DNA of 38,992 nucleotides. It comes from a virus (Duplodnaviria > Heunggongvirae > Uroviricota > Caudoviricetes). The stretch lies in IMG/VR virus record IMGVR_UViG_2785510761_000002. One strand, 5' to 3'. The notes under the pieces were generated by a model, which was not told the origin of the DNA, did no database searches, and saw only the letters and a program-made list of their open reading frames with translations. Positions 1,741 to 34,965 of this stretch are shown here, piece after piece. Both the position numbers and the translations under genes were made by a program. Each line of letters begins with the position of its first letter. Position 1 is the stretch's first letter.

Positions 1741-3009
1741 GGTTCCTCCTGGGTTGGTGGTGGTGTCAATCGAATGCGCGGCATGTCTGCGCTCCCAATC
1801 GGCATGTGCCGCGTCGGCCATCTCCTGTGTTTCGGCTGCGATGTAGGTGGCCAGGCGCTGTCCGTTCAGGCCACCGCTTTCGAGCTGCGGGGCCGGGGTG
1901 GACGCGGCGACGGTCTTCTGATCCATCAGCGCTTTCACCTTGTCTACGGCCAAGGCCATCGCCGCGTCCCGCTCTGCCTGTTCACCGGCGAGCACCTGTG
2001 CGCGCCGGCGAGACATGGCTGGGTCGTCGAGCTTCCCTCCGGGGATGTTGAGCTCTGAAGCGGTCGGCATCTTAGAAGCACTGTCGAGCGCGTTGTCCTT
2101 TTTGAGGCGCGCCACGGGGCAGGACTGGGCCAGATCGCACCATCCACACAGGGCGCTGGGTTTCGCGGGGAAGCGCTGTTCGTCTGCGTACCGCTGCAGA
2201 TCATCACGGCTCTGTTTCACGGAGATCAGGGTGCCCTGCACCTTTTCGGGTGCGATGTCGATCTGCCGAGTATGGGGTGCGCGGGGGTAGATCAGATTGA
2301 CACCGGTCACCACTTCGCCAGGATTGTTCGTCTCGAACACGTCCTTGTACCAGTGGCCCTGCATGCCGTAGTCGTCGCGGAAGCTTGGGTTCGGGTTGCC
2401 CTTCCACTTGCCGAACTTGTAGTCATCCACGATGATCTTGCCGGTGATCAGATCACGTCGAACTCGGTCGATTGAGCCCACGGTCACCACGCCGTTACTG
2501 GATGGGAGGCCCTTAAAGTCCCACTCGCTTCCGATCATCTCGATGCTCTGCGGTTCTTCCACCTTCAGGATGCCGAGTGACCACTCAAGAACAATGGACA
2601 GCCAGTATTCCCGGGAGAGCTCGTTGACCGCAGCGGTCTCGGGAAGTTTGTTTGCGAGCTTCTCAGGATCCCAGTATCGATTCGCGACGTCACGGGCGAT
2701 CGCTTTGAGCGCCGCCTCCGTGCGTTCAGCCGGCGGGAACTGATAGAACAGCTCCATGACTTCGTGCGCGCCTGTCCCCAGCTCATTTGCTGCGAACGGG
2801 TCGAAGAACCTCGGGAGGCGAGATTTACCCAGATGCTGTGCGGGGCACTTAGCAACATCGTGGGCACGGCTGATGGACAGCCAAGATTTTCGGGCCTTCT
2901 TCACATCCTCGGGAGTGTCTCCGACGAGGGCTGCCTTGAGGCGGTCGCTCGGCCATCTCTCCGAGGGGTCTTCCCAAGTTTCCCAGTGGAGACCGTCCAT
3001 GATGCTCAT
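1090..3009 (-). CDS. PD-(D/E)XK (RecB/Cas4/AddB-like) nuclease with 4-Cys Fe-S staple and a long C-terminal extension
   Basis: LGTGAHEVME, GSIDRV..IIVDDYKFG catalytic motifs, Q..WY motif; KCPAQ plus CGWCDLAQSC cysteines. Start moved to MSIMDG at 3009 (AGAGGA SD, ATGA overlap with upstream stop). Confidence 0.8.
   Translation of the reverse strand: MSIMDGLHWETWEDPSERWPSDRLKAALVGDTPEDVKKARKSWLSISRAHDVAKCPAQHLGKSRLPRFFDPFAANELGTGAHEVMELFYQFPPAERTEAALKAIARDVANRYWDPEKLANKLPETAAVNELSREYWLSIVLEWSLGILKVEEPQSIEMIGSEWDFKGLPSSNGVVTVGSIDRVRRDLITGKIIVDDYKFGKWKGNPNPSFRDDYGMQGHWYKDVFETNNPGEVVTGVNLIYPRAPHTRQIDIAPEKVQGTLISVKQSRDDLQRYADEQRFPAKPSALCGWCDLAQSCPVARLKKDNALDSASKMPTASELNIPGGKLDDPAMSRRRAQVLAGEQAERDAAMALAVDKVKALMDQKTVAASTPAPQLESGGLNGQRLATYIAAETQEMADAAHADWERRHAAHSIDTTTNPGGTMSQDVQAPVQPQMMPQAAPQQAQVAVQQTPMAQQTLVDVQQAPAVQPAAQPAQRLPRVESYMKSSTNNEGELDLGSYAARNAAAVAEYAVYLISEAGFSARPARLDSLAKQLGRIARRIAFRYTGTQNMQSGAFTHSLYAMKEAIRYLQRATPGGPIPFGQNQESWSVWAGRVENMGIAILQTVDAVFLDDSTDTDLFGQLEQLFPANETAPFQAQ
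1772..1781 (-). promoter_or_regulatory. Box A (CCGCGCATTC), internal to nuclease gene
   Basis: Exact copy of the recurrent motif, 31 nt before the internal ATG at 1740. Confidence 0.6.
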
Positions 3010-3380
3010 TCGGCGTCCTCTGCTTTCAGACGGGCCGGCATTGAGCTGACGTATAGCAACGTGCCGGCGCAGCCGATCATGAGATTGCATTTCGCGTTCT
3101 TGCCAGGGTTCTTCGAAGCGAGCACCCATCGTCGGCAGTTTGTGCAGATGAGCAGGGTGCTGAGTGGTGCGAGTCTGAGGTACTGCACGACGTAGGGATA
3201 CTCGTCGATCAACTGCTGCTGCTCAGCCGTCAGCTGAACGCGCGCGTGAGTCTCAGGTGACTCCACCAGCATCTTCCATGTGGAGCAGCCAGTAGCTTTC
3301 AACGTGAGCAGCCCTATGTGCGCAGCGCGCGCAACGTCTGGCAGCTCCTCGTTATCGCGAACCAGTTTCGGCTTAGCCAC
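3006..3380 (-). CDS. Small protein with a probable Cys4 zinc finger (124 aa)
   Basis: GTG at 3380 with GGGTGAGG SD; CTNC...CNLMIGC motif; overlaps both neighbours. Confidence 0.65.
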   Translation of the reverse strand: MAKPKLVRDNEELPDVARAAHIGLLTLKATGCSTWKMLVESPETHARVQLTAEQQQLIDEYPYVVQYLRLAPLSTLLICTNCRRWVLASKNPGKNAKCNLMIGCAGTLLYVSSMPARLKAEDAE

Positions 3381-3579
3381 GGGCCTCACCCTTTCCAGAT
3401 CCGAGAATCGCCATCCCGGAGACAATGAAAATCAACGCAAGAATCCCGCGTCCGTCAAAAGCTCCGTACCCGTTCGCCAGCATCACCGCATAGACGATGA
3501 GCGGCACGACCACCATGGCGATCGCCAGGAGGGTGAGCCATGCTGGGCGCTGGTATGTGCGAGTGCTCTTCGTGTTCAT
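3373..3579 (-). CDS. Small membrane protein, two TM helices (68 aa), probably leaderless
   Basis: Two hydrophobic stretches; no SD, ATG 8 nt after box A. Confidence 0.7.
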   Translation of the reverse strand: MNTKSTRTYQRPAWLTLLAIAMVVVPLIVYAVMLANGYGAFDGRGILALIFIVSGMAILGSGKGEARG

Positions 3580-3587
3580 GTCTGTTC

Positions 3588-3597
3588 GAATGCGCGG
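3588..3597 (-). promoter_or_regulatory. Box A (CCGCGCATTC)
   Basis: Exact motif 8 nt upstream of ATG 3579. Confidence 0.65.
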
Positions 3598-3600
3598 TGC

Positions 3601-6600
3601 TCAACGACCCATGCCGCCAGACATAGAGGCGATGAGTTTGCGGGCGATTTCGTCCTTCGACTGACGTTTCTTGGCCACCTCAACACTCTGAGCTGGCTCG
3701 GGTGAAGAGGCCTTTTCGGTGATCGTGACAGTTGAGTCATTGGGCTCGGCAATCGGGGGTGCGATTCGGAGATGCGGCGTTGATGCAGGTGCCTCATCAA
3801 CAGGAGCAGACGCGGCCGGACCAGCAATCAGCACCTGTGTGGCGGCGGCAAGAGCAAGGGAACCGTCAACCGATGGCGCTGCAGACGTTATGAATTCGGC
3901 TACTGGCTCCGGATTCGCGTCGCTTTGGGGTCGGGCGCTCTCCTCAACGAAAACCGCTGTGGTGTCAGCCTTCTTCTTGCTGCCGCTGGGCTTCTCTGGC
4001 GGCTGAGGCGCTGTCAGATCGATCTTCGGGTGTGGTGAGAAATCCACTCCTCCGACCTGGGTGAGCGGAATGTCGATGGGGTAGACGCCGCGAACGGTGA
4101 TCTCCTGGCGGACGATCTCCTGCTCCTCGCCGTCTCCGTCCTCGTCATCAGATCCGTGAGAGCGGACGTTGAATGAACGGGTTCCGATCTTGCCGAAGGC
4201 CACCACCGGGAACCCCACACGTGGGAATGATCCATCCGCCTTTGCCGCGGCTCGCTCCCTCTCCCACAGAACCCCGGTCAGTGACCCGTTGGCATCTTCC
4301 AGGGTGACACGGGCGAACGCACCGCTCTTGTACGGGCGCTCTTCGTACGAGGTCAGGATTCCGGCGACGTGAACCAGTGAACCGTCGGCAACATCTGCCG
4401 CCAAGAGTTCACTGACGGTCACAGCGGATGGGCTCGCGTAGCCAGTGTTCTCAGCTCCCGGTCGAGTCCACCCCGTGAGGGTCTCCTGTACCTGCTGTCG
4501 TACGTTGGCGTCGAGCGACATCAGCAGACGCGAGGTCTGTCTAACACTCAGCTCCAGCGCCGTGTACTCCATACGCGGGATCGCTGCGCACTCATTCATC
4601 CCCAGCCGCTGAACGAACCGTAGCCCCATGCGGGGGCCGAATGCATCCAGAGCGCCTGAGTCGATGAGTGCCTCCACGCGTGAGTGGGAGAGCGTAATCT
4701 GGTCGGATCCCGCCGAGGTGCGCTTCAGCAGGTCAGGCAGCGACGTGTAGGGGGCATCCGTTCTAGCTTCGATGATCGCTTCAGCAGCAGAGCCGACACC
4801 CTTGATCTCAGACAAGCCGATGAGCACGGAGTCTGCTGCTTCGTTTGGTGCGCTCAGCAGTCCACTCTCATTGATGTTCGGGGGCAGCACCTGCATCCCC
4901 TCATCGATAAGCGCGCGCATCGCCGCGAGTCTCTTCTCTGCCTTGTCAGGTGGCGTCACCGAGAGAGTCGCTGCACCGTAGTGGGCCGGGAAGTTCGCTT
5001 TCAGGTATGCCGTGATGTAGGCGATGTAGGCGTATGCCTGGGAATGAGACTTGTTGAAGAGGTACTCGGCGCTTCCCTTCATCGCCTCCCAGACCCGGTT
5101 TGCTGTCTGTTCGGAGAACACGGGACTGTAGACGGCGCCGGTCTCGTCGCGGAACTCCTGGACTGCGCCCTCAAGGAACTTCGCACCGACTTCATCCATG
5201 ACGGATTTGATCTTCTTGGAGACAGCCTTTCGGAGCTTTGAGCGCCACATGTCGTCAAACCCAGCGACGACACCGCCGAGACGCATAACCTGCTCCTGGT
5301 AGCAAAAAACGCCGTAGGTCACATCCATCACGGAGCCGAGCCACTTCGCCTCCTCGGGGTCGCTGGTCAGGTAGTCGTAGCTCACAGGCTCTCGGCCGTT
5401 CTTCCTGTCCGCGTATTTCGAGTGCATGCCGGCCGACAGCGGCCCCGGCCGGAACAGTGCGACAACCGCTGAGAGGTCGTCCAACGTGTCAGGGCCGATC
5501 TCCTCGAGGAGGCGTGTCATCCCATCTGACTCCAGCTGGAAGATGCCGGCGGTGCGCCCCTCTTGCAGCATCTGGAACGCCTTGCGGACGCGGGGGTCTG
5601 AGCTGTCGTGGTCCGGGTCAGGCAGGCCGTAGAATTCCAGGCTCTCGTTTGTCCGCTCGTTCACTGAGTCGATGGCCAGATGTGCCATGTCCAAGTTTCG
5701 GATCGCGAGGATGTCGAACTTCACGAGGCCGAAGTCCTCGATCATGTCCTTATCCCACTCGGTCACCCAGCGTGACCAGTCAGCGGAACTGGGCTTGTGC
5801 CAGCGCATTGGGATCAGGTCAGTCAGGGGCTCGGGAGAGATGATGACGCCAGACGCATGCACACCGCCCACCTTGGCGACATTGTAGAAACTGCCCATCA
5901 GCGAAAGCACCGGTTCGAGGTGCTTCACGCTACTCGTCGCGGACCAGAACTCAGCTACGCTCAGGTGGTCCTCACCGCGAATGACGATCCCGGTTCCCTG
6001 GCTCGATAGGAGCTCAGTTGCGGTCAAGTCTTGGGGGAGGAGCTTTGAGAGCTTGTCGCTGAGCGCTGCGGGCTCGCCGAGCACTCGCAGTGCGTCCTTG
6101 AGCGCCTGTCGGATCTGTGGCCGGCCGATGTTTCCGATCTGGGCGACATGATCCTCGCCCCAGAGTTCCACCAGGTGCGCGATGATCTGCTGCTTGTGTC
6201 GTGACTCAAAATCGATGTCGATGTCAGGGAGCTCGGCACGCCCTGGCTCGAGGAACCGCTCGAACAGCAGGTCGTACTCGATTGGGTCAAGCTGTGTGAT
6301 CCCGAGGATGTACGCAACCAGTGACCCCGCTGCGGAGCCACGCCCGGGGCCGACGTAGAACCCCTGCTCGCGCGCCCATGTGATCATCTCGTGCACAATG
6401 AGGAAGTAGTCGATGAACCCCATGCCGCTGATGGTTCCCAGCTCGGTGTTCAGTCGGTCCTTGTACTCCTGCGTCAGCCCCTCTGGGAAGCGCTGTTCAA
6501 GGCCCTGCTCAATCAGGGAGCGTAGGTACTGGGTGTTACGCTCGAACCCGTCAGGAAGAGGGAACTCAGGCAGGCGCACTCGACGCTCAGGCATCGCATC

Positions 6601-7707
6601 CCACTCCACACGCGCCGCAACCGCGAGTGTGTTGTCGCAGGCTTCCTGCCACCAAGGCTCATCACTGAGCGCCCGCATCTCCTGAGAGGTACGCACGTGG
6701 TAGCCGGTCCCATGGAAGCTGAACTTCGAGTTCGCCAGCGTCGAGTCAGTTTGCAGCGCCAGCCACGCACTGTGGGCAGTCTGGTCTTCTGCGGTGGTGT
6801 GATGCGAGTCGTTCGTTGCGACGATGGGCAGGCTGAATTCCGCGGCCAGCAGGCGCAGCTCAGGCAAAGTCATCTGCTCATCGGCGTTCCCGTGCTCCAT
6901 CACCTCGATGTACACGTTTTCCTGACCGACGGCATCGATTAGTTTGGATACGTTCTCGCGAGCACGCCCACGCTCAGCGGTGGTCGCGAGCGTCCAATCT
7001 ACGATCTGCTGTGGGCTGTATCGTTGGCCGTCGGATCCAGTCGCAGATGCAGCTTCGAGCGCGAGAGCGCGAAGTTCCTCAGACTGCTTTTCGGTTGATC
7101 CGTCTGGGATCGTAATGGGGGTGCTGAAGTAGCTACTTGCTCGGTTGAAGGCCTCCGTCTGGCGGTCGCCGAACAGGGTATTCAGCTTGTGCTCTGCGGT
7201 TACCGCTCGGCTGAGTGGGCCGAACACGGGGCCGCCGATGCAGCCGGTGAGAACCATGAGGCCCTCGCCGTACTTCTGCAGAACCTCGTAGTCGATGAGC
7301 TGGGCCCTGCCGTGCTTGTGCATCGAGCTTTCGTTGTGCAGCCGCACTAGGTTGCTCCAACCGGTTCGGTCGCGCGCGATGATCGTCAGGTGCTCGTAAG
7401 TGCGCGTCTTGCGGTTCTTGGTCGCTTTCGCGTCGCCTCCCTCGGAGGCGGAATCGTCGGCACTGACTTCGATTGTTTGGCGCTCTGTACGGCTGCCGAT
7501 GGCGATATAGGCTTCCAAACCGGGGAGCAGCTTTACACCGGTGCGGTTTGCGTGCTTGTGGGCCTCCCACATCGCCGCCAAGGACTTGTGATCAGTGATC
7601 GCCACCGCTGGAGCGCCGTCGGCTTGCGCCTGATCGAACAGGTCGCCAACTCGGGTGAGGCCGTCGAGCATGGAGTGTTCGGTGTGAACATGCAGGTGGA
7701 CGAACAC
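3601..7707 (-). CDS. dnaE: DNA polymerase III alpha subunit (DnaE1-type, intact PHP site)
   Basis: FVHLHVHTEHSMLDG, AITDH, GLEAY, EHLT, TGC, TNDSHH (PHP); GPGRGSAAGSLVAY, PDIDIDF, VKFDIL (palm); FNKSHSQAY; HhH and OB-fold regions; TAAGGAG SD before GTG. Confidence 0.97.
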   Translation of the reverse strand: MFVHLHVHTEHSMLDGLTRVGDLFDQAQADGAPAVAITDHKSLAAMWEAHKHANRTGVKLLPGLEAYIAIGSRTERQTIEVSADDSASEGGDAKATKNRKTRTYEHLTIIARDRTGWSNLVRLHNESSMHKHGRAQLIDYEVLQKYGEGLMVLTGCIGGPVFGPLSRAVTAEHKLNTLFGDRQTEAFNRASSYFSTPITIPDGSTEKQSEELRALALEAASATGSDGQRYSPQQIVDWTLATTAERGRARENVSKLIDAVGQENVYIEVMEHGNADEQMTLPELRLLAAEFSLPIVATNDSHHTTAEDQTAHSAWLALQTDSTLANSKFSFHGTGYHVRTSQEMRALSDEPWWQEACDNTLAVAARVEWDAMPERRVRLPEFPLPDGFERNTQYLRSLIEQGLEQRFPEGLTQEYKDRLNTELGTISGMGFIDYFLIVHEMITWAREQGFYVGPGRGSAAGSLVAYILGITQLDPIEYDLLFERFLEPGRAELPDIDIDFESRHKQQIIAHLVELWGEDHVAQIGNIGRPQIRQALKDALRVLGEPAALSDKLSKLLPQDLTATELLSSQGTGIVIRGEDHLSVAEFWSATSSVKHLEPVLSLMGSFYNVAKVGGVHASGVIISPEPLTDLIPMRWHKPSSADWSRWVTEWDKDMIEDFGLVKFDILAIRNLDMAHLAIDSVNERTNESLEFYGLPDPDHDSSDPRVRKAFQMLQEGRTAGIFQLESDGMTRLLEEIGPDTLDDLSAVVALFRPGPLSAGMHSKYADRKNGREPVSYDYLTSDPEEAKWLGSVMDVTYGVFCYQEQVMRLGGVVAGFDDMWRSKLRKAVSKKIKSVMDEVGAKFLEGAVQEFRDETGAVYSPVFSEQTANRVWEAMKGSAEYLFNKSHSQAYAYIAYITAYLKANFPAHYGAATLSVTPPDKAEKRLAAMRALIDEGMQVLPPNINESGLLSAPNEAADSVLIGLSEIKGVGSAAEAIIEARTDAPYTSLPDLLKRTSAGSDQITLSHSRVEALIDSGALDAFGPRMGLRFVQRLGMNECAAIPRMEYTALELSVRQTSRLLMSLDANVRQQVQETLTGWTRPGAENTGYASPSAVTVSELLAADVADGSLVHVAGILTSYEERPYKSGAFARVTLEDANGSLTGVLWERERAAAKADGSFPRVGFPVVAFGKIGTRSFNVRSHGSDDEDGDGEEQEIVRQEITVRGVYPIDIPLTQVGGVDFSPHPKIDLTAPQPPEKPSGSKKKADTTAVFVEESARPQSDANPEPVAEFITSAAPSVDGSLALAAATQVLIAGPAASAPVDEAPASTPHLRIAPPIAEPNDSTVTITEKASSPEPAQSVEVAKKRQSKDEIARKLIASMSGGMGR

Positions 7708-7763: not shown

Positions 7764-7797
7764 CAGAAAAGGCCGGCACCCTGGCCGGCCTTTTCTG
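7764..7797 (-). terminator. Intrinsic terminator after the primase-helicase gene
   Basis: Perfect 14-bp inverted repeat CAGAAAAGGCCGGC / GCCGGCCTTTTCTG, 6-nt loop, T-tract on both strands. Confidence 0.85.
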
Positions 7798-7806: not shown

Positions 7807-10800
7807 TTAGTCCTCTTGCTCGTCGCTGATCCCGAGCAGGCGGTTCAGCAGCACCATCGGTCCGCGTACTCGGGCACCGCGGCCGTAGTACTGCTGGACG
7901 CTGTAGGAGCGGCTACCGCCGGTCGGTTCGATCAGCAGCCCCTCGCTGAGCGCAGCCCGCCAGCTGGATTCGTACTTCTGGCCATGGGGAACGAAGGTGG
8001 GGTAGTGCCTCTGCGCGAGAGCAAATGCGTTTACAGCGTGGAACTGTGCCACCAGCACGCTCTCCTGCCCGCTGGGTGTTCCGGCGTAACCGATCGGCTC
8101 TCCCTTAGGCTTCCATTCGCTGCCCTCCATCTCCCAGCCCACCAGGCGGTTGTACTGCTGCCCCTCCGGCCGGGTGGTGTCGAACGGCGGAACACCTGGG
8201 GAAATTGGGTTTGCGAGGTGGGCCTTACGCGAAGCAAGGGCATTGGACATCGCGACGATCAGGCTTCGACCGACCTTGTGCTCTTGCAGCGTCACCAGCT
8301 GCTCAGCTGCGAGCGTGGCGAGCGCCACGGTGACGTTGTGGAACTGTGGCACCTCCACCTCACCGCCTCGCTCCTCGCGGATGGTAGCTGAGATGTCCAG
8401 GTTCATTCCCTCCACAGCCCCCTTGACCATTCGGTACGACTCGAGAGCCTTATCAGCGGCCGCGGCTGACTGATCCTCGTCTGAGCTGGTCGCACTCACC
8501 AGCATGAGCGACACCAGTGTGTCCGTGTCCGTTCCGCCTGCCCATTGATACAGATGGCTGAGGTAGATCAGTGGCAGCAGCAGTTCGCTGATCAGAGCGA
8601 CCCGCCGGGCTGATGCTCCCTCGGAGATACCGTGCTCTGCATTCAGGATGACCCCGAGCGCGCTCTTTGCCTCCTTGTGCGTGCGCTTCAGAAGGGTCAC
8701 CCGTTCAGCCCACGTGTTCGCGTAACCGCCCTGGTCGTTGATCGTTGAGACATGCGGTTGATGCCAGAATCGCACCATTGCTGCTGCGACGCGTGACAGG
8801 ACAAGCGAGTCAAGCACCTTCGTGCGAAGTTGCTGAGCAGCCTCGTTATTGATCGTTCCGCTGCGGGGATCGCCGTTCCCTCGCTCGAATTTCAGCTCGA
8901 CAACGCGCTCGAGAGCCGAAGTGGATGTCAGTGAGTTCTCGGCGGTCACGACAAGCATTGCGCGAGGTTGGCTGCTCTTCGCCAGAGCACCATCCTTGGT
9001 GCCACGCTGACGGGCCGAATCGTTGAAGATGGAGCGCACCAGATTCTCCATACCGGCCTCAGCGTTGATCGCCGCCGATGCGCTGACGCTCGGCGCAAGG
9101 TCGTCAACCACCCACATGCCCCCGCCGGCAACAGCAACGGTCTTCTCCAGCGCGAATGCCGTGGAGGAAGCTGATCCGGGGAGTCGATCTTCCGACCAGG
9201 TGCCCTTTTTGTCCTGCCAGGCGCACATCGCGAAGCTGGCGCTCCAAGACTTGCCAGACCCAGGGTTTCCCGAGCAGAAGATGGGGATGCCGGGACGTTG
9301 CGGTACCGTCGTTCGCAGAGCGGCCGCCAGCAGCGTCGGGCCGTGGTGCGGGGTGCGCCATACGCCAGAGTTGACGAAGTGTTTTACGGTAAGTTCGATG
9401 TCACCGCGCAGCTGGCGCCGGTATGTTTCCAGGCCAGCAGTGGTGACCTCACCGACGGCATTCGGGTCTACGGTGTCCCACCAGAGATCCTGAACTCCGA
9501 ACAGGCTAGCGTTCGGGAGGATGGAGCTGTCCACTGCACTCTCAGTCTGAGCCTCGTCTGATCGAGTTGCCCCCAGGCGCTGGTCGCCGATCACGTACAC
9601 AGGGTCACCGTCAGGCGTTGGAACCCAGCCGGTCGCAGACCAGGCACGCTTCTTGGTCCACTCACGGTCTGGTGTACTCGAGTTCCTCTTGATGGCCTGC
9701 AACCACTTGAGACCCTTTTCTCCGCCAGGCGGTGGCCAGTTCGGGGACATCGTGAGCTCGGGTGGCAACTGCCCCTGAACCTTTGCGGGCCACCGGTCAG
9801 GTGACGAGCTCAATAGCTCTGTGCCGATGAGCACCTCTACACGCTTGGGCTTCTCGGTGACCTCGTCCATCCAGCACAGCTCGAGCACCGCATGCTGCTC
9901 TGCGGTGTGATCTTCACCGGTGTGAAGCTGCCCCTCGGAGACTTCGTTGTGCGTCGGAGCACGATCTACGACGATGGATGACACGTACCCTCCGACGTGC
10001 ACACGAGGTACGAGGTGACCGTAGCCAACTTCAGCGTTGTACATCCACTCGCCAACGCTCAAGCCATCCTTGCTGACATACCATTCACCGGTCTTCAGCC
10101 CTTCGGACTCATCCACTGGAGACGGCGGGAGCTGGTCTTCGACATAGCTCAGCAGCTGCTCCAGGGAGCCGATGTGTGAGAGGAAGTCGTCCGCCCCTAG
10201 CATGGGAGGCTTCTGATCACCGACCGCTTTTCCGATGTGAGAGTAGCCTTCTACGGCCTGAATTTGCATCAATGCAGAAGAGGAACCAAGGTTCACAAGT
10301 CGCACTTGTGCATCGCGCTCACTTGCGTACTCCCAGAGCCGCGAAGCTGCCTTCCAGACGCGCGTGTTGGATGTCACGTCGCCGTCCAGGCAGATCAGCA
10401 GCTCCTTGTTAAAAAGCGGCAGCGGGTTGAGCTGTGTGGGCTTCCAACCGTCCACACCAGCCACACCAATAGGCATGATTCGAGCGTGCGAGGGCACCTT
10501 CGCGATCGCGTCACGCAGCTGCGCAAGACCGGCTTCTTTCGCCCATGCGACGGTCTCGTCAACACTCAATCCGGTCGGGAGGAGCAGGTCAGCGTAAGGA
10601 ACTCCCGCGCTCAGCAGCATCGCTGTGAGGATCGAATCCTCCTTGAGTACCCCTTCGGTCAGGACGATTTTTGAAGCTTCGCTCACGAGATCTCCGGTCC
10701 AGGCCGGGTGCGCACTGATAGGTGCGTGCATTTCTCGTGGGAAGAGGTACTTCATCGGTCGCCCGTCAGCGTCCTCCTTGGCGATGCTGGGGCGTGCCTG

Positions 10801-11121
10801 GCAGAGGCTGAATCCCGGCAACTTCGTGCCCCCGCCGACAACTGCGCCGACGCTGTACCAGGGCATGATCATGACATCGCCGCCCTCAGCGAAGCAGTAT
10901 TTAGTCTGCTGCGGGGAGATGCCCTTGCCGCCGCTGGCCTCTGGCTTGGAAGCTTCGGAGACTCGTGTCTGCGGTTTTTTCGACTCACCGTCTTGATCCG
11001 AGAATGATCGATATCCTCTGACGGCGGCTACGAGAGGGGCGATCTGGCTGTCAATAAGCTTGTCGGCTCCCGAGTCATAGATGATGGGGGAGAACTGCTC
11101 CGCGGTAAAGCGATGAGTCAC
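7807..11121 (-). CDS. Primase-helicase fusion: TOPRIM-like (DUF3854-type) N-terminus plus DUF927/Cch-type P-loop helicase
   Basis: IVLTEGVLKED and ICLDGD (TOPRIM E and DxD); SGNPGSGKS Walker A, WVVDD Walker B, RAMLVVTAE sensor-like strand. Start refined to GTG 11121 (AAAGG SD, box A upstream). Confidence 0.75.
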   Translation of the reverse strand: MTHRFTAEQFSPIIYDSGADKLIDSQIAPLVAAVRGYRSFSDQDGESKKPQTRVSEASKPEASGGKGISPQQTKYCFAEGGDVMIMPWYSVGAVVGGGTKLPGFSLCQARPSIAKEDADGRPMKYLFPREMHAPISAHPAWTGDLVSEASKIVLTEGVLKEDSILTAMLLSAGVPYADLLLPTGLSVDETVAWAKEAGLAQLRDAIAKVPSHARIMPIGVAGVDGWKPTQLNPLPLFNKELLICLDGDVTSNTRVWKAASRLWEYASERDAQVRLVNLGSSSALMQIQAVEGYSHIGKAVGDQKPPMLGADDFLSHIGSLEQLLSYVEDQLPPSPVDESEGLKTGEWYVSKDGLSVGEWMYNAEVGYGHLVPRVHVGGYVSSIVVDRAPTHNEVSEGQLHTGEDHTAEQHAVLELCWMDEVTEKPKRVEVLIGTELLSSSPDRWPAKVQGQLPPELTMSPNWPPPGGEKGLKWLQAIKRNSSTPDREWTKKRAWSATGWVPTPDGDPVYVIGDQRLGATRSDEAQTESAVDSSILPNASLFGVQDLWWDTVDPNAVGEVTTAGLETYRRQLRGDIELTVKHFVNSGVWRTPHHGPTLLAAALRTTVPQRPGIPIFCSGNPGSGKSWSASFAMCAWQDKKGTWSEDRLPGSASSTAFALEKTVAVAGGGMWVVDDLAPSVSASAAINAEAGMENLVRSIFNDSARQRGTKDGALAKSSQPRAMLVVTAENSLTSTSALERVVELKFERGNGDPRSGTINNEAAQQLRTKVLDSLVLSRVAAAMVRFWHQPHVSTINDQGGYANTWAERVTLLKRTHKEAKSALGVILNAEHGISEGASARRVALISELLLPLIYLSHLYQWAGGTDTDTLVSLMLVSATSSDEDQSAAAADKALESYRMVKGAVEGMNLDISATIREERGGEVEVPQFHNVTVALATLAAEQLVTLQEHKVGRSLIVAMSNALASRKAHLANPISPGVPPFDTTRPEGQQYNRLVGWEMEGSEWKPKGEPIGYAGTPSGQESVLVAQFHAVNAFALAQRHYPTFVPHGQKYESSWRAALSEGLLIEPTGGSRSYSVQQYYGRGARVRGPMVLLNRLLGISDEQED

Positions 11122-11158: not shown

Positions 11159-11168
11159 GAATGCGCGG
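11159..11168 (-). promoter_or_regulatory. Box A (CCGCGCATTC)
   Basis: Exact motif 37 nt upstream of GTG 11121. Confidence 0.65.
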
Positions 11169-12137: not shown

Positions 12138-12544
12138 GCTTGCCGATCCACCTTTCGTGTGGGCTTGGGAGTGTAGGGAAAACCTGGCCATGGCGACTGA
12201 TGAGGTCGCCGGAGGTTCGCCCAGATGACAAGACGGCGCCCGCAGGCGCGTCTATCGATCAGCCAAGCGACAGTCGTCGTTCCGTGGTGCACATCAGTAG
12301 CTTTCGATGCATGAACGAGCTCTTTTAGAAGCTTTGATGCGGTGACTTCTCCGTATCCCTGAACGGCAGTGAGAAGTTTTGCGAGGCGTATCTTTCTGAG
12401 CGCCTCATAGCCAGGCTGTGTGGCAAGCTCGATGATTTCCTCTGGCGTAAGGAACCCGCTACGCACGCTTTCGAGGTGAGAACCACGGAGTTCATGCGCC
12501 TGAGCTTGTGCTTGCAGGAGTGCCCGACTGTCCACGTCACGCAA
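12134..12544 (-). CDS. mIHF/sIHF-like nucleoid-associated protein (H2TH fold)
   Basis: RGSHLESVRSGFLTPEEII..LRKIRLAKLLTAVQGYGEVTASKLLKEL aligns by eye with actinobacterial IHF (RAELKDRLKRG..LGKMKVSALLEALPKVGKVKAQEIMTEL). Confidence 0.7.
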   Translation of the reverse strand: MRDVDSRALLQAQAQAHELRGSHLESVRSGFLTPEEIIELATQPGYEALRKIRLAKLLTAVQGYGEVTASKLLKELVHASKATDVHHGTTTVAWLIDRRACGRRLVIWANLRRPHQSPWPGFPYTPKPTRKVDRQA

Positions 12545-13472: not shown

Positions 13473-13474
13473 TT

Positions 13475-21887: not shown

Positions 21888-21897
21888 CCGCGCATTC
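21888..21897 (+). promoter_or_regulatory. Box A (CCGCGCATTC)
   Basis: Exact motif 8 nt after the hairpin, 78 nt before GTG 21976. Confidence 0.65.
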
Positions 21898-23792: not shown

Positions 23793-26066
23793 GTGACTGA
23801 CACACAGACCAGGACACCGACACCCGTGCAGGAGCTCACCCTGCTGCTCGGCGAGAGCGTGAAAATTGCCACAGGTAACCCGGAAGCCCAGCCCCGGCCA
23901 GGGCAGCTGATGTGCGCCAAGGACATCTGGCAGGCGCTGTCCACACGCACTCGTATGAACGGCATCGCGCCGACGGGCACGGGTAAAAGTTTTGCCCACA
24001 TGAGCTGTGCTGCACTCGCAGCGGTTCTGTACGAGGAGCGCACAGTGATCTCCACGAACTCGCTGGCATTGCAGGCGCAGTTCATGGAGAAAGATCTCCC
24101 GGTGGTTGCCGAGGCTGTAGAACATCTGTACGACGGGTACGAGCTGCGATATGCGGTGCTCAAGGGAGTGTCGAACTACGCCGACCCTGTGCGCGCGCTT
24201 GACCTTGCTAGGAACCTCACTGGCAAGACGGGCGAACGGTCATTCACCGCGCTCGTCAAGCTTCTTGAGAGCGGGCAGTTCGATAAGCGCTGGAAGCCGA
24301 AGAACTCTGGGCCGCAGACCTCTGGTGCCATGAAACTCGCTGAACTCGCCGCTTGGGCGCTCGGCGTGTATCTCGACGATAGCGCGCATGGCGACCGGGA
24401 GTCGTGTCCCGTGGAGCACACGGGTGACGACTGGTCGCTGGTGAGCGCATCGAGCGATGAGAAAGCGGAAGAGAAGGACACCGGCTACGTCGCGAAAGCA
24501 GACGACGCGAAAGATCGGGCTCTTGAAGCTCACGTCGTCGTGACCAACCACACCTTGCTTGGAATGCAGGCGGCTCAGCGCATCCCCGTCGTGTTCGGTT
24601 CGAAGCGACTCGGACGGTTCGACCACCTGATCGTCGATGAAGCTCACACGCTCCCGGATCAGGTGCGTTCACGTGGCGCCGCTGAGGTGAGTGGGCGTCA
24701 GGTCATCAAGGCCGGCCGCGCGGTCATGAATGTGATTGATGATCGATTCATCGACGAGGACGCGCAGATCCTTGCACAGGATGTGGACAAGGCCATGCAG
24801 CGCGCCGTAGCCACTCTGCCGCCGAAGGAGACAGCGCTGCGTGTTGGAGGCGACGAGGCAGGTCCAGTAGAGGATGTGCTTGATCAGATTCTACAGTTCA
24901 CCGGACGGTACCTGCGTCAGGTGAAAGCTGCTCAGGAGTCGAACAAGAGCAATCCAGTATTCACACAGAAATGCCGACGCGCGACATCGGCACTGGAGCG
25001 CCTGACGAACGCAGCGAACGATGCCACTGAGCCCAACCCGCACATCGCGCGGTGGGTGACGAAGCAAATGGATCCGAAGCTGCCGCCGGTCTTCGAGAGC
25101 AGCCCAATCTTCGTGGGAAAGCTGATCGAGAATGAACTCTGGACCGTCGCACCGGTCATCGACATGGACTCGCTCGAGCCGGAAGACGATCTCGAGGCGC
25201 TGCTGGCGATGCGCGAACCTCTGGGTGTCGCGTGTGTGAGCGCCACGCTCCCATCCACGTTCAACCTTGATGTGAACATCCCGAGTCCACCAAGTGAGTA
25301 CGCCTCACCCTTCACTGAAGCGTACGCCGGGAGCGCAATGTTTGTGCCCCAATGCTTGGCCCCAGCCGACATCGAGTCTCTGAAGAGCTCGTTTGGCGGG
25401 TACAACGGCAAGGTGAAATTTGACACCTACCGGCACGAAACATGGGCCACCGGCCTGATCATCAGCCTGGTGCGCGCAAACGGAGGCCGAGCGCTGGTGC
25501 TCAGCGCAAAATCAGCGAGCGGTAAGGCGTATGGCAAGGCTCTCGAGGAAGCACTGGCAGGAACGGGGATCTCTGTTCATACCCAGTGGGACGGTGGCCA
25601 GGTCAGCCGGATCATCGACCGGTGGCGAAGCGACGAGACGAGCGTGATGGTGGGCACCAAGTCGTGCATGACTGGCATCGACGCCAAGGGCGAGACAGCC
25701 AGCCTGATCATCATTGATCGACCGCCGCGTGCCGCAAAAAACGTCATTGACGAGGCGCGCCTCGAGGACAAGATGAGCTCGCTGGGCGGGAACCGGTGGG
25801 CGGCCGATCAGCAGGTGTATGTGAGTGACGCAGCCCTGCTGCTCGACCAGGCCGTAGGACGCGCGATCCGAGCAGAGAGCGACCGCGCAATGGTCGCAGT
25901 GCTTGACCCCAGGCTGCTCACACCAAAGTGGTCTGCGTTTAACTACTCCACCCCGGTGCGACAAGAGTTCGTGAAGCCTCTGCTGAGGTTCGGAGCCAAG
26001 TTTAATGACCTCAGTGCTGCCGTCGGCTGGTTGGAAGACCGACGGTCAAGGGTGGCAAATGGGTAA
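23793..26066 (+). CDS. dinG: DinG-family SF2 helicase lacking the Fe-S cysteine set
   Basis: APTGTGKS, VISTNSLALQAQ, VVVTNHTLL, IVDEAH, SATL, TGIDAKG, QAVGRAIR..D, LDPRL; GGGAGG SD. Confidence 0.9.
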   Translation: MTDTQTRTPTPVQELTLLLGESVKIATGNPEAQPRPGQLMCAKDIWQALSTRTRMNGIAPTGTGKSFAHMSCAALAAVLYEERTVISTNSLALQAQFMEKDLPVVAEAVEHLYDGYELRYAVLKGVSNYADPVRALDLARNLTGKTGERSFTALVKLLESGQFDKRWKPKNSGPQTSGAMKLAELAAWALGVYLDDSAHGDRESCPVEHTGDDWSLVSASSDEKAEEKDTGYVAKADDAKDRALEAHVVVTNHTLLGMQAAQRIPVVFGSKRLGRFDHLIVDEAHTLPDQVRSRGAAEVSGRQVIKAGRAVMNVIDDRFIDEDAQILAQDVDKAMQRAVATLPPKETALRVGGDEAGPVEDVLDQILQFTGRYLRQVKAAQESNKSNPVFTQKCRRATSALERLTNAANDATEPNPHIARWVTKQMDPKLPPVFESSPIFVGKLIENELWTVAPVIDMDSLEPEDDLEALLAMREPLGVACVSATLPSTFNLDVNIPSPPSEYASPFTEAYAGSAMFVPQCLAPADIESLKSSFGGYNGKVKFDTYRHETWATGLIISLVRANGGRALVLSAKSASGKAYGKALEEALAGTGISVHTQWDGGQVSRIIDRWRSDETSVMVGTKSCMTGIDAKGETASLIIIDRPPRAAKNVIDEARLEDKMSSLGGNRWAADQQVYVSDAALLLDQAVGRAIRAESDRAMVAVLDPRLLTPKWSAFNYSTPVRQEFVKPLLRFGAKFNDLSAAVGWLEDRRSRVANG

Positions 26067-26464: not shown

Positions 26465-27583
26465 TTAGCTCTGCCTGATCAGGCGGAGTGCACTCTCTAG
26501 ACGACGATCGATGGAGGCTGCTGACGTTACACCTGAACCAAGCGGACGGCCTGGGAATTGGAGCACCAGATCGGACGCCCTGCGCCACCCGTCCGCGCTC
26601 TTCGGGTCTTCCACATTGGTGTCACCTATAGCAACCGGAGAGCCAGTGAACTCTGCTACCCACGCCCTGATGAGCTTGCGGGACAGGGCCGGCCACTTCT
26701 CGTTGCGGGAGCCCTGTGAAACTACCTCCCGAAGCTGTTTTATCTCAGAAGATGTGACCGGAGGCCTGGGGGAGAGTGCGGCAGTCACCACGGTCAACAA
26801 GACGCGATCATCTCGCTCGGACAGCTCATCGGCCTGCTCTGGGGTGAACCGAGCCCAGAGGGCTGACATATCCGGGTCTGCGGGCGCCTCCCTGAACGCG
26901 TGGGAGAGCAGAGAGTCCCTGAGCGCCGCTGGATGGTTCCCGATGTGTCTGATGATCGAATTGCGTGCAACGCGTGACAGGGGGACAGCTATCTCCGGTA
27001 TGTCGTATGTCTCATGGAGTAGCCGTGCGCCGAGCTCTGTCCTCGCCCCTCCTCGGAGACGGTGCACCATCCTCCCTACCTCGGCAAGGTCGATGCTTCC
27101 AGTGTCGAGCAGCCTGCGCTTCGATTCATCGATTTGATCGATCACAGATGGAACAGAGGGGTGCTCGAACTCCTGCTCGAAGGTGGTGGAGTGCTGGGAT
27201 GAGAACTTCCTAAACGCTGCCGCCTCGAATCGCGGGTAAATCGTGTGGAGCAGCCGCAACATCAGCTCTGTCGGCGACTTTGTGGCCAACGCGTTGAGAT
27301 CGATGCTTGATGCGGGCCGGGTGATGATCTTCTCGACATATAGCACCATCTGCGAGTGCATATCTTCACGCATACGGTCGTCAGCATGGCGGGGTGCTCG
27401 GCGCATCACCTGCTCAATCAGCATGAGTTCCGGGTTGATGATGGTGAAAAACAGGTCGAGACGATAACTGCCAGCATCAGCTCCGCGACCCTCATGTTCA
27501 AGGATCACTTGGGCAAGTCTGCGAGCTTCGGGGTCGGTGACGTGTCGAAGTCTGATCGCACTTACCGTTGAGCCCGCTGTCAC
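26465..27583 (-). CDS. Hypothetical protein (372 aa), own transcription unit, probably leaderless
   Basis: Long ORF; GTG 7 nt after box A. Confidence 0.75.
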   Translation of the reverse strand: MTAGSTVSAIRLRHVTDPEARRLAQVILEHEGRGADAGSYRLDLFFTIINPELMLIEQVMRRAPRHADDRMREDMHSQMVLYVEKIITRPASSIDLNALATKSPTELMLRLLHTIYPRFEAAAFRKFSSQHSTTFEQEFEHPSVPSVIDQIDESKRRLLDTGSIDLAEVGRMVHRLRGGARTELGARLLHETYDIPEIAVPLSRVARNSIIRHIGNHPAALRDSLLSHAFREAPADPDMSALWARFTPEQADELSERDDRVLLTVVTAALSPRPPVTSSEIKQLREVVSQGSRNEKWPALSRKLIRAWVAEFTGSPVAIGDTNVEDPKSADGWRRASDLVLQFPGRPLGSGVTSAASIDRRLESALRLIRQS

Positions 27584-27590: not shown

Positions 27591-27600
27591 GAATGCGCGG
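27591..27600 (-). promoter_or_regulatory. Box A (CCGCGCATTC)
   Basis: Exact motif between a terminator and GTG 27583. Confidence 0.65.
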
Positions 27601-27615: not shown

Positions 27616-27650
27616 CGTAACACCCCCGACAGGCTGTCGGGGGTGTTACG
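27616..27650 (-). terminator. Intrinsic terminator after the adhesin gene
   Basis: Perfect 17-bp inverted repeat CGTAACACCCCCGACAG / CTGTCGGGGGTGTTACG followed by CATTTTT on the minus strand. Confidence 0.85.
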
Positions 27651-30788: not shown

Positions 30789-32240
30789 CTACCCCCACTC
30801 GTCGCTAGGGGGCGAGTAGGTGGGGCAGGTCACACCGTTTGTGGTGAACGAGCCGCCGTCGGGGAACCATCCAGCCGGGGCACCGGGGCAGGTGTATCCA
30901 CCGCTGCTACCACCGTCCGAACCTCCGCCCCCGGTGCCGCCGCCGCCGCCACCTGAGCCGGTGCCACCGCCGCCCGAGCCACTGCCTCCGCCCCCGGTGC
31001 CGCCGCCACCGCCACCTGATCCAGTGCCACCGCCGCCCGAGCCGGTCCAGCCGTCGGAGCCGTATCCGCCGGTGCCGCTCCAGTCGCTAGAGCCACCGTC
31101 GTAGCCGCTCCAGTCGTCTCCGCCACCTCCGCCGTATGCAGCTTCCTGCGCTGCGGCTTCAGCTGCGGCCGCTTCTGCGGCTACCGCGTCGGCGTGGGCT
31201 TTGGTCGCAGTGTTCGCGGCACTGACGTACGCCTGAATCTTGGCAATGGTCAGTGTCACACGATGCGCGCCGGTGACCTCGACAGCTTCGCCCTCGGCTT
31301 CCTTAACCTTGGGGGCGAGCTTCTTCTCGGGATTGAACTTGTAGGCCGAAGCGAAGTCGCTAGCGTCCTTCGCGGTGGCAGTCACCTTGGCGAGAGCGTC
31401 GCCGCCCTTTGTCTGCGCGGCGACCACGGACTTCGCCTGCTCGGGGAGCTTCTGCGCTGCAGTGTTCAGCGCAGGGAGCGAGGCTGCAACTGCGTCGAGG
31501 ACGGCGGCGTTTTGCTTTGCCTCATCTTCGTGCAGTGCTTTCGCGTCTGCCAGGTCGTTCTCTGCGTTCAGTAGTGTGGCCTTCGCATCGGCGACTGTCT
31601 GCTTCGTGACCTTTTCCGGTGCGACGGTGCTCAAGTCCTTGACGGGCTCCGCTTCCTGCGCGAAAACGGCAGCTTGGGCAGGCTTCGCGCCGATCCATGT
31701 ATCGGGTAGCTTTTCGAGCTGCTCCGGCGTTGCCTTCTTATCCGGCGATGCGATCGCCTTGAGGAACGCTGCCTGCTCGTCGTCGATTTTGGGAAGCGAC
31801 TTCTTCAACTCTGCTGCGGCTGCGGATAGTGCCTTGGTCTGCGCCTCGGGGATCACGGCCTTGTCAGCCTTGCCGAGAGCCTCCAGGTCTGACTGCAGCG
31901 CGGTAGCTTCATCGAGCTGCAGCGCGGTGAGTGCGCGCAGCTCGTACGTCTCGGCGGTCGTGTCGAACGTCGCGACATGGGCCTCCACGGTTGCGGAGAC
32001 TGCAGCCTTGTAGTCATCGACCTTCGCCTGGTGGAGCAGCGGGGGAATGCCGATGGCTGCAGCGATCGCTGCGACAGCGACGACCGCTCCACCGATGACC
32101 AGGCCGAGCTTCTTGCGGGGCTTCTGAACGGGCTCCTCGGCTGCAGGGGCAGCTTCGGAAGCAGTGCTTTCTTCAGGCTCGACCTCGTTCAGCTCGCGCG
32201 TCTGATCGTCAGCCTGATTCTGCTGATCTTCGGTGGACAT
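30789..32240 (-). CDS. Membrane-anchored Ala-rich helical protein with Gly-rich tail and small two-Cys C-terminal domain
   Basis: Acidic N-terminus, KPRKK + TM helix, Ala/Lys/Glu-rich body, GGGG repeats; GAGGAG SD. Confidence 0.85.
   Translation of the reverse strand: MSTEDQQNQADDQTRELNEVEPEESTASEAAPAAEEPVQKPRKKLGLVIGGAVVAVAAIAAAIGIPPLLHQAKVDDYKAAVSATVEAHVATFDTTAETYELRALTALQLDEATALQSDLEALGKADKAVIPEAQTKALSAAAAELKKSLPKIDDEQAAFLKAIASPDKKATPEQLEKLPDTWIGAKPAQAAVFAQEAEPVKDLSTVAPEKVTKQTVADAKATLLNAENDLADAKALHEDEAKQNAAVLDAVAASLPALNTAAQKLPEQAKSVVAAQTKGGDALAKVTATAKDASDFASAYKFNPEKKLAPKVKEAEGEAVEVTGAHRVTLTIAKIQAYVSAANTATKAHADAVAAEAAAAEAAAQEAAYGGGGGDDWSGYDGGSSDWSGTGGYGSDGWTGSGGGGTGSGGGGGGTGGGGSGSGGGGTGSGGGGGGTGGGGSDGGSSGGYTCPGAPAGWFPDGGSFTTNGVTCPTYSPPSDEWG
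30922..31043. repeat. Near-perfect tandem duplication of a 63-bp unit (21 aa, GSGGGGTGSGGGGGGTGGGGS)
   Basis: Units begin at 30922 and 30985 and differ mainly at synonymous positions. Confidence 0.8.
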
Positions 32241-32295
32241 CTGTATCTCCTCGTTTTGTGGTACGCCAAAGGACCGCCAGCGGCGGCTGATCTTC

Positions 32296-32305
32296 TAATG
32301 CGCGG
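32296..32305 (-). promoter_or_regulatory. Box A (CCGCGCATTA)
   Basis: 9/9 core match 55 nt upstream of ATG 32240 in an AT-richer intergenic region. Confidence 0.6.
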
Positions 32306-33702: not shown

Positions 33703-33714
33703 CACATACGGGTC
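33703..33714 (-). promoter_or_regulatory. Box B (GACCCGTATGTG), overlapping the sortase stop codon
   Basis: Exact motif, 88 bp upstream of the previous copy. Confidence 0.6.
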
Positions 33715-34345
33715 ACTGCACCGGTTCGAGCATCACGAACTTCATCGTGGCCCCGTCCCAGTAGCATGTCTGCAAGATCAGTGTGCCTGACAGGTGCGAG
33801 ATGTCATCAACGGTCGTCGTGAACTGCGGAACATCGAGCATCTCCACGATCCTGAATTCTTGCTCGCCGCCGTCACGCTCCACGACCTCGACCACATCTC
33901 CGATGCCTAGCGGAAGAATCACGTCTCCGCGCACCCCCTCGCCCCAACATCCGTTGTGGGCGGAGTAGACCGGTGACTGCATCTCGTCAGTCTGGTAGTC
34001 AACCATGCGCACCCAGCTGCCGGGGCACTGATCCACGAGCTCCTGGCCGCCATCCGGCCCCAGGATTACGCGCGGTGTCTGGCCTGACACGACCTGAGCT
34101 TGATGTTTGATCTGCGTGCCGGCAGTGCCAATGACTTCCTTCGTCTTGTCAGGAGCCACCCCGAGGCCTATGAGGATCGCGATAGCACCGATGAGGATGA
34201 TTCCGATGAGCACTGATGCGATCGCTGTGAGCCAAGCCGCCAGCTTGCGGCGCTTGCGCACCTGGCCGGGGGCGTCAGGCGGCGCCGCGCCGGTGTCTTC
34301 CGACTCGGTGAAACCAAGCTGCTCAAAATCTGTACCAGTGCTCAT
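33713..34345 (-). CDS. Sortase-family transpeptidase (actinobacterial class F-like)
   Basis: N-terminal TM anchor, VYSAHN (His), L..GD.V.V, LILQTC (Cys). Confidence 0.75.
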   Translation of the reverse strand: MSTGTDFEQLGFTESEDTGAAPPDAPGQVRKRRKLAAWLTAIASVLIGIILIGAIAILIGLGVAPDKTKEVIGTAGTQIKHQAQVVSGQTPRVILGPDGGQELVDQCPGSWVRMVDYQTDEMQSPVYSAHNGCWGEGVRGDVILPLGIGDVVEVVERDGGEQEFRIVEMLDVPQFTTTVDDISHLSGTLILQTCYWDGATMKFVMLEPVQ

Positions 34346-34351
34346 TGGGGC

Positions 34352-34894
34352 CTAGAAGTCTGCGTCCAGTGACTCGAGCGCGTTAGTGTGCACCCAGAGC
34401 TTGCCGAATCCGAGGCGCTCGAGCGAGTCGAGGAACTGTCGCTCGTCGTACGAGGTCACCCACACAATGCCGTCGCCCTTCGGGGCAGTGACATCCGTGT
34501 ATGGTGCGTACCCTTCCGCCATGAGAATCAGTGGCAACTCGTCGCGCGGCCAGGCCTCGAACTCAAGCACATCCTCGTCCTTTGGGTGCAGGAGTGCGGT
34601 CAGCTCATCCTCGCTGAGCGATTCCTGTAGTCCGGGGAACTGAGCGTACGCAACGTCGATCAGCGTCGCTTGTGCTGCCCCGGAGGCGGTGGCGAGCAGC
34701 CCGAAGCGTGCGGTGGCCCAGGGGTCAGGGTCGCTCTCGTCCGCCGAGAGGTTCTCGTAGTCTTCGATCAAGCCTTCGCAGATGCCGGTGCGGCTGTCTG
34801 AGCCGATAAGTTCGTTGTTCAGCGTCAGGAACGCAAACGGAAACGGGTGCTCGTTCAGTGCAGCTTCTGCTGCGCTGAGGATGGTGTAAGTCAT
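34352..34894 (-). CDS. Hypothetical acidic protein (180 aa)
   Basis: GAAAGGA SD before ATG 34894 (MTYTILS). Confidence 0.75.
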   Translation of the reverse strand: MTYTILSAAEAALNEHPFPFAFLTLNNELIGSDSRTGICEGLIEDYENLSADESDPDPWATARFGLLATASGAAQATLIDVAYAQFPGLQESLSEDELTALLHPKDEDVLEFEAWPRDELPLILMAEGYAPYTDVTAPKGDGIVWVTSYDERQFLDSLERLGFGKLWVHTNALESLDADF

Positions 34895-34955
34895 GGTGTC
34901 CTTTCGAGATGTGTGGCGTGGGGTCGACAAATTTCGCTAACCCTGCGCTTGAGCG

Positions 34956-34965
34956 GAATGCGCGG
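34956..34965 (-). promoter_or_regulatory. Box A (CCGCGCATTC)
   Basis: Exact motif 61 nt upstream of ATG 34894. Confidence 0.65.

Follow-up and report, generated by a model that had tools for sequence, protein, structure and literature searches.

What is the function of a short, oriented word that recurs ahead of genes in IMGVR_UViG_2785510761_000002, a 38,992-nucleotide (nt) record assigned to the Caudoviricetes? An initial annotation, made from the sequence alone, placed 11 copies of this word, Box A, in the whole stretch of DNA (hereafter the window) and took it for an extended -10-like element. Our analysis suggests that this actinobacterial megaplasmid-like element and its relatives have a private transcription system with Box A as its core promoter element, and that Box A is read by way of the element's own sigma factor. 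We give this explanation as a whole a probability of about 0.7. That Box A has a promoter role is, from its sequence context, very likely.

The abundance of Box A was determined by an exhaustive pattern search. Exact copies of the 9-mer CCGCGCATT numbered ten in the window, three on the plus strand and seven on the minus strand. In dinucleotide-preserving shuffles the mean was 0.70 and the maximum 5, and none of 100 shuffles reached ten, in keeping with the excess over a chance level of about 0.5 that had been claimed. The 11 coordinates of the initial annotation were correct in a 10-mer frame, the minus-strand 9-mer beginning one base later. In that frame the exact copies read CCGCGCATTC in eight cases, CCGCGCATTG in one (23737) and CCGCGCATTA in one (32297). 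The eleventh site, reported as an 'ATAA variant' ahead of dnaE at 7746 (7747 in the 9-mer frame), is real and reads CCGCGCATAA, a copy of CCGCGCATA. Another CCGCGCATA, at 22713(+), has no convincing downstream gene. As a class, one-mismatch variants were not enriched in the window (17 versus 13.6 expected). There are nine occurrences in the window of CCGCGCA with A, C or G as the next base, mostly within genes and on either strand, so the signal includes the T that follows this 7-mer.

The placement of the copies is equally non-random. From a hand-refined gene map, 7.4% of the window is non-coding, and eight of the ten exact copies are wholly non-coding (binomial P = 3.6e-8); the other two overlap an upstream stop codon (23737) or lie within the open reading frame (ORF) of a nuclease (1773). 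All ten point the same way as the downstream gene. The initial annotation had proposed such a positional test, and had named many randomly oriented copies in coding regions as the pattern that would speak against a signal; no antisense or scattered coding copy of CCGCGCATT was found. At the 11 sites start codons lie 9-80 nt past the end of CCGCGCAT, which agrees with the earlier 7-78 nt counted from the end of the 10-mer. A sequence logo of the sites confined conservation to the 10-mer, with background directly outside it. Judged by its sequence and placement, Box A is a strongly selected word. A chance origin is ruled out by the shuffle counts, the orientation and the intergenic placement. 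A restriction-modification or Dam target is ruled out by the fact that Box A is oriented and intergenic rather than scattered, and a mobile-element end or repetitive extragenic palindromic (REP)-type repeat by conservation over only 8-10 bp between unrelated flanks.

Relatives of the element carry the same signal. The best tblastn matches of the window's DnaE are plasmids of 375-610 kb from Curtobacterium, Arthrobacter and Pseudarthrobacter. The closest relative, a syntenic 43.8-kb contig (loci L001 and L052), was reached through a sigma-like protein that is 65-66% identical. In this contig, orthologous boxes are present for ten of the 11 window sites. The kept sites precede the genes for UvrD, the primase-helicase, DnaE (here too as the ATAA variant), the thioredoxin-like protein and a helicase, as well as two orphan genes of 372 and 483 amino acids (aa) and a small ORF after dnaE; one is internal to the nuclease gene, and one is kept as CTGCGCATTC. 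Over the ten orthologous pairs, ungapped identity was 97% in the 10-mer versus 36% in each 30-nt flank, upstream as well as downstream, which argues for selection on the word itself. In locus L004, whose sigma-like protein is 29-30% identical, CCGCGCATCACTG stands ahead of four syntenic genes (UvrD, primase-helicase, dnaE and one upstream gene), and locus L002 has the form CCGCGCATTACTG.

Complete plasmids extend this pattern. In the Curtobacterium plasmid D40 the word takes the form CCGCGCATAGAGG, and CCGCGCATAG(A) is the top non-trivial 10-mer by de novo count. Copies of CCGCGCAT number 140 in D40 and 146 in pS16, versus 22 and 19 for the reversed control. Arthrobacter-type megaplasmids showed no enrichment of CCGCGCAT and have a variant of their own, CCGCACACAT, which emerged from a de novo count in Pseudarthrobacter pACHL01 (139 copies, reversed control 0) and occurs 97, 138 and 139 times in three megaplasmids versus 0 for the control. 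The motif was not found in pACHL02, which is co-resident with pACHL01 in P. chlorophenolicus A6, or in a Rhodococcus dnaE plasmid.

The distance between word and start codon points to transcription. Spacing was counted in the first 400 kb of pACHL01 and of D40, taking ATG or GTG codons that open an ORF of at least 60 codons and have no Shine-Dalgarno (SD) site. For the pACHL01 word CGCACACAT (n = 133), such a start lies exactly 7 nt downstream in 59 cases and 8 nt downstream in 8. For CCGCGCAT in D40 (n = 95) it lies exactly 9 nt downstream in 25 cases and 10 nt downstream in 3. For most of the remaining copies the start lies about 26-49 nt downstream, as would be expected with SD-bearing leaders, and no spacing peak was observed in the reverse orientation on either plasmid. 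In a 50-kb stretch of pACHL01 (locus L011), 7 of 14 copies stand exactly 7 nt before RefSeq-annotated start codons, leaving no room for an SD site. The window has two genes of this geometry, neither with an SD site: a 68-aa ORF (3373-3579) with its ATG 10 nt after CCGCGCAT of the 3589 box and a 372-aa orphan gene (26465-27583) with its GTG 9 nt after that of the 27592 box. Both are candidate leaderless starts. Leaderless actinobacterial mRNAs begin at the start codon. If the SD-less starts are leaderless, both variants of the word share an alignment in which CCGCRCA spans -17 to -11 and ends in the A at -11, because the spacings in D40 and pACHL01 and the lengths of their two words each differ by 2 nt. 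On the same assumption, the A at -11 holds for D40 (9 nt, 25/95), for pACHL01 (7 nt, 59/133) and for the window site at 27592 (9 nt). The word also precedes tRNA genes in D40, and therefore acts on transcription rather than on translation.

These positions suggest how Box A might work. CCGCGCAT would lie at about -17 to -10 and the invariant family core CCGCRCA at -17 to -11, so that its A at -11 would coincide with the adenine that is flipped out in a normal -10 box. With transcription beginning 9-10 nt after CCGCGCAT, nine window genes would have leaders of 24-71 nt with an SD site, and the transcripts of the two genes at 3373-3579 and 26465-27583 would begin at or beside the start codon. 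Box A would stand in for the host-type TANNNT/-35 promoter, a type that hardly occurs in the window. The two halves of the window (about 20 kb each, with 1 kb of overlap) contain 0 and 1 sigma-70-type promoter-like sites versus about 3.5 expected in each from shuffles, the single site being internal to a gene. At three window boxes a strong terminator hairpin ends 9-19 nt upstream, so that these have no free -35 region.

The reading of Box A as an extended -10-like element with no shared -35 sequence is supported, with qualifications. Its placement fits, and no conserved -35-like column was found upstream of the 11 window sites, in their logo, or in D40. Its sequence, in contrast, is neither TGnTATAAT nor TANNNT. 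Position -12 is an invariant C and -7 is unconserved or A/G in all variants, where a -10 box has T at both, and the TG of a classical extended -10 at -15/-14 is absent, -17 to -13 being CCGCG (CCGCA in pACHL01). The likeness to an extended -10 is thus probably one of position, together with the A predicted at -11. The 133 sites of pACHL01 (NC_011879.1) do show a -35-like block, CGGkGAg at -38 to -32 (G-37 in 96%, A-33 in 86%), which the variants of this element and of Curtobacterium lack. In actinobacterial leaderless promoters recognised by sigma-A, a TANNNT box ends about 6-7 nt before the transcription start site (TSS), which is the start codon. Box A resembles them in a conserved block that ends a fixed few nt before an SD-less ATG or GTG and in an adenine that would fall at -11, and differs in its C-A at -12/-11, the absence of T-7 and a CCGC(R) that reaches -17 in place of TANNNT. 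Taken together, the fixed spacing, the tRNA genes behind the word, the abutting terminators and the scarcity of sigma-70-type sites make a core promoter element much more probable than either an operator or a signal in RNA.

The alternative that fares best is that Box A serves an element-encoded repressor or activator as an asymmetric operator and overlaps or follows the true promoters, which we consider unlikely. The stoperators of cluster A mycobacteriophages (L5, Bxb1) are 13-bp asymmetric repressor sites oriented with transcription, and Box A is similarly short, asymmetric, near-invariant, transcription-oriented and located in short gaps, with dozens of copies per genome. The initial annotation had dismissed a dimeric repressor site since the word is non-palindromic; the existence of such asymmetric sites makes that reason insufficient by itself, and it is the fixed spacing that speaks against a repressor site. 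Stoperators keep no fixed distance to start codons and do not replace promoters; Box A and its variants have a fixed spacing to candidate leaderless starts and occur in gaps with no other visible promoter. The asymmetry and orientation of a stoperator were found in Box A, but its TSS-independent placement was not, given the exact start spacing in relatives. An operator would account for a nearly invariant 9-10-mer with no halo of degenerate copies and for an orientation strictly with transcription. However, the same gaps hold no other promoter candidate, terminators abut three boxes, the word heads tRNA blocks, and a quarter to nearly half of the copies in relatives lie at one exact distance from SD-less starts, as would suit a TSS-setting element but is unexpected for an operator.

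Among published plasmid systems, the nearest parallel is a 34-bp motif of the Bifidobacterium breve conjugative megaplasmid pMP7017, which overlaps the -10 of 19 mapped promoters and, according to the authors, is absent from bifidobacterial host chromosomes (PMC10832533). That motif is AT-rich and includes the canonical -10 hexamer TATACT; its authors interpreted it as the binding site of a transcription factor, so that a plasmid-private word overlapping the -10 has already been given a regulator reading (PMC10832533). Both are motifs of actinobacterial megaplasmids, and tRNA and tmRNA genes occur on pMP7017 and on the relatives of this element. Box A, in contrast, has no canonical hexamer and is 8-10 bp rather than 34 bp in length. 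The operator and promoter readings can also overlap, as a regulator site may coincide with the -10 region.

If Box A is a core promoter element, host core RNA polymerase would be guided to it by the element's divergent sigma factor, for which the candidate is the protein encoded at 11253-12137(-). In Pfam searches this protein reached 21.5 bits for Sigma70_r3, below the cut-off of 25.3, with no match to r2 or r4, and an NCBIfam search returned nothing. In a 50%-identity representative library of about 1.8 billion proteins, only 96 representatives of its family were found at E<=0.001. The family profile matches FliA, a sigma-28 factor (E 4.5e-4), and at E<=0.01 10 of 40 members match Sigma70_r3 and 3 of 40 match Sigma70_r2. 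An AlphaFold2 model of the protein had a predicted local distance difference test score (pLDDT) of 83. Among the top 50 Foldseek matches of the model 47 were sigma factors, with plain E-values all >0.001. All 50 matches listed by VIA were sigma factors, spanning sigma2-3 plus sigma4, with Z of 8-10.8, values that are middling for all-helical proteins. The sigma matches of both searches cover residues 27-312, and the helices follow the order sigma2-sigma3-sigma4. A phmmer search of the PDB returned only designed helical repeat proteins.

The genomic distribution of the candidate follows that of the word. The sigma-like gene is present in 9/9 motif-bearing elements checked and was not found in pACHL02 or the Rhodococcus dnaE plasmid, both motif-free. 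It belongs to a conserved module with genes for a ParA-like protein, a 311-aa protein, an H2TH-like protein, the primase-helicase and DnaE. No beta-prime homologue was found on five complete relatives, in a search whose control was positive in 14/14 genomes, and host core polymerase is therefore the likely enzyme. From its family, fold and co-occurrence with the word, we lean slightly towards the 294-aa protein being the element's own sigma factor that reads Box A.

As a separate observation, D40 (NZ_CP126274.1) holds both forms of the word, 140 copies of CCGCGCAT and 19 of CCGCACACAT (reversed controls 22 and 0), and the sigma-like profile matches it at three places (E 5e-47, 9e-14 and 1e-4). 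These sequences suggest several sigma/promoter classes on one replicon. The 311-aa protein (12537-13472, minus strand) is kept in the same module in all relatives; it was considered as a second sigma factor and rejected, since its hhalign probability against the sigma-like family was 0.1% and it had no Pfam match.

The promoter could instead be read by a host alternative sigma factor or by a relaxed host sigma-A, the sigma-like protein having some other role. The promoter evidence is equally compatible with this possibility. The sigma-like gene may moreover lie in an operon that Box A itself heads (17697), which raises the question of who transcribes it on entry into a cell. Box A has no TANNNT, however, and to our knowledge no actinobacterial sigma consensus fits it. 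In P. chlorophenolicus A6 the co-resident pACHL02 has neither the motif nor the sigma-like gene, and the form of the word changes between elements of Microbacteriaceae and of Micrococcaceae hosts, all of which carry the sigma-like gene. We regard reading by a host sigma factor as improbable. That the word works as RNA in 5' leaders, as a processing, stability or translation signal, is highly improbable: its sense orientation and the conserved hairpins just downstream in several leaders, such as that of the 32297 box, would fit, but the word precedes tRNA genes, directly follows terminators and, at a spacing of 7-9 nt, would give a word-containing transcript with a short SD-less leader and no room for a ribosome-binding site.

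Several points weigh against a private promoter read by the element's own sigma factor. The TSS position depends on taking the SD-less starts at a fixed distance to be leaderless, and in the window leaderless spacing occurs at only 2/11 copies, one at 9 nt and one at 10 nt. With no T-12, no T-7 and no TG at -15/-14, Box A is not predicted by any known sigma specificity. The exact copies are unusually invariant for a promoter and in this respect more typical of a transcription-factor site; this near-invariance leaves room for an additional regulator that binds the same bases. The sigma-like protein falls below the Pfam curated cut-offs, and the co-occurrence of its gene with the motif is confounded by the shared ancestry of the whole replication module.

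Mobile elements with a sigma factor and private promoters are already known as a kind of system. Examples are SigN of Bacillus subtilis pBS32, the clostridial factors TcdR, UviA, TetR and BotR, gp28 and gp33/34 of SPO1, and gp55 of T4, which recognises a single -10-type late box. The present element resembles them in having its own sigma-family protein and a shared promoter word unlike that of the host, and it resembles T4 late promoters in that a single box near -10 appears sufficient. It differs in the number of copies (about 100-140 per replicon in relatives), which serve replication genes, tRNA blocks and orphan genes, in CCGCRCA at -17 to -11, in the many putatively leaderless genes, in a sigma family that is rare and sub-Pfam, and in a link between sigma factor and box that is deduced here. 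No description of the Box A motif or of the sigma family was found in the searchable literature, and full-text searches for CCGCGCAT and CGCACACAT returned only unrelated primer or sequence matches. What is new is the TSS-anchored alignment across variants, the footprint at orthologous sites, the evidence for a sigma-like fold and the negative controls.

A broader view, which we hold at even odds, is that a family of actinobacterial megaplasmids, including those of Curtobacterium, Arthrobacter and Pseudarthrobacter, runs a phage-like private transcription programme, with about 100-140 CCGCRCA promoters per replicon, a quarter to nearly half of them leaderless, and an undescribed, highly divergent sigma family that reads a -10 without T-12 or T-7. 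If so, these plasmids would control their own genes, tRNAs included, separately from host sigma-A. Like many phages, plasmids of 160-600 kb would keep their gene expression insulated from the host, here on a conjugative replicon that brings its own DnaE, primase-helicase, tRNAs and tmRNA as well. Such insulation would explain the ability of these elements to function across hosts. The sigma factor and its 8-10 bp promoter would give high-GC Gram-positive bacteria an orthogonal pair, and would be a natural example of a -10 recognised with C-12 and no T-7, bearing on how sigma region 2 reads DNA. The word may also serve as an annotation aid that marks transcription units and corrects start codons, as for gene 26465-27583.

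The wider gene content of the window was surveyed by profile and nucleotide searches. The window has 60.6% GC, and megablast against phage and plasmid collections gave no match. Pfam searches identified a PD-(D/E)XK nuclease, DnaE, a UvrD-like helicase, a D12-class adenine methyltransferase, a DUF2637 protein, a ParA-like ATPase, a thioredoxin-like protein, a DEAD/Helicase_C_2 helicase and a VirB4-like AAA_10 ATPase. A 1137-aa orphan protein has Toprim-like and P-loop motifs, seen by eye, from which it is read as a putative primase-helicase; for these motifs it was rejected as a private RNA polymerase. Profile searches of genome contigs with the sigma-like protein and with a primase-helicase alignment found no relatives. 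The coordinates of the Box A sites and of the sigma-like gene are given in Table 1.

Table 1. Box A sites (10-mer frame) and the candidate sigma factor gene in the window, with orthologous sites in relatives.
Feature	Coordinates	Strand	Context and orthologous sites
Box A, CCGCGCATTC	1772-1781	-	Within PD-(D/E)XK nuclease ORF 1090-3129; orthologous copy L001 20388
Box A	3588-3597	-	3 nt past dnaE stop codon; orthologue L001 18618
Box A variant, CCGCGCATAA	7746-7755	-	Precedes dnaE (3601-7707); ATAA variant also kept, L001 14345
Box A	11159-11168	-	Precedes Toprim/P-loop primase-helicase-like gene 7807-11118; orthologues L001 10948, L004 10931, L002 1112
Candidate gene for divergent sigma-70-family protein	11253-12137	-	294 aa by source; 312 aa from first ATG (11253-12191)
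Box A	17697-17706	-	Precedes UvrD-like helicase gene; orthologues L001 4406, L004 4287
Box A	20370-20379	+	Precedes thioredoxin-like gene 20415-21338; orthologue L001 1751(-)
Box A	21888-21897	+	9 nt past terminator hairpin 21834-21879 (19-bp stem)
Box A, CCGCGCATTG	23737-23746	+	Overlaps stop codon of ORF 23178-23747; orthologue L052 13857(-)
Box A	27591-27600	-	15 nt past terminator 27616-27650 (16-bp stem); orthologue L052 9980, also after own terminator
Box A, CCGCGCATTA	32296-32305	-	Precedes 483-aa orphan gene 30789-32240; orthologue L052 5403
Box A	34956-34965	-	Precedes 180-192-aa gene 34352-34930; orthologue L052 2719 = one-mismatch CTGCGCATTC

Individual sites differ in what follows them. 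The dnaE gene starts with a GTG 40 nt after the 7746 core, preceded by an AAGGAG SD site, and a terminator hairpin lies upstream of the box (~7771-7790). The primase-helicase-like gene has its GTG 39 nt after the core of the 11159 box. The 17697 box heads a dense minus-strand run of genes for UvrD, the DUF2637 protein, the ParA-like protein, the 311-aa protein, the H2TH-like protein and the sigma-like protein. A 96-aa ORF with an SD site begins 80 nt after the 21888 core, the one box for which no orthologous site was found in the syntenic relative. The gene behind the 23737 box is that of the DEAD/Helicase_C_2 helicase (23793-26066).

Two sites bear on the gene models. Downstream of the 1772 box are a GGAGG and an in-frame ATG (1740), 33 nt after CCGCGCAT. 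The nuclease ORF 1090-3129(-) stays in frame through this internal box, and both box and open frame are kept in L001, so the gene may give a separate 216-aa C-terminal product besides the long protein. The gene at 26465-27583(-) is given as 347 aa in the source record. The spacing to its box and an orthologue of 371 aa in L052, which has its ATG 13 nt after the core, favour the GTG at 27583 (372 aa), suggesting that the source called the gene 25 codons too short.

Minor observations concern other signals and labels. In D40 the rgi layer of PLSDB labels a stretch of 102 nt (locus L005 3646-3747, NZ_CP126274.1) that abuts an exonuclease gene as 'NDM-19 beta-lactamase', which looks like a spurious short match. 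The leader downstream of the 32297 box (32240-32296, minus strand) contains a hairpin with the core GCCGCCGCTGGCGGTC that is nearly identical in L052 (5411-5467), in contrast to the diverged remainder of the leader, and that may have a regulatory or stabilising role as a 5' structure. A second word, Box B (gACCCGTATGTG), occurs in the window at 20352, 30678, 33615, 33703 and 36738, all on the minus strand, and the first of these copies stands back to back with the 20370 box in a divergent intergenic region. Box B also occurs at orthologous places in L052, upstream of genes 983, 4105, 7008 and 16632. It shares a CCG-(pyrimidine-purine)n pattern with the pACHL01 word CCGCACACAT, and may belong to the same system as a further promoter class instead of being unrelated.

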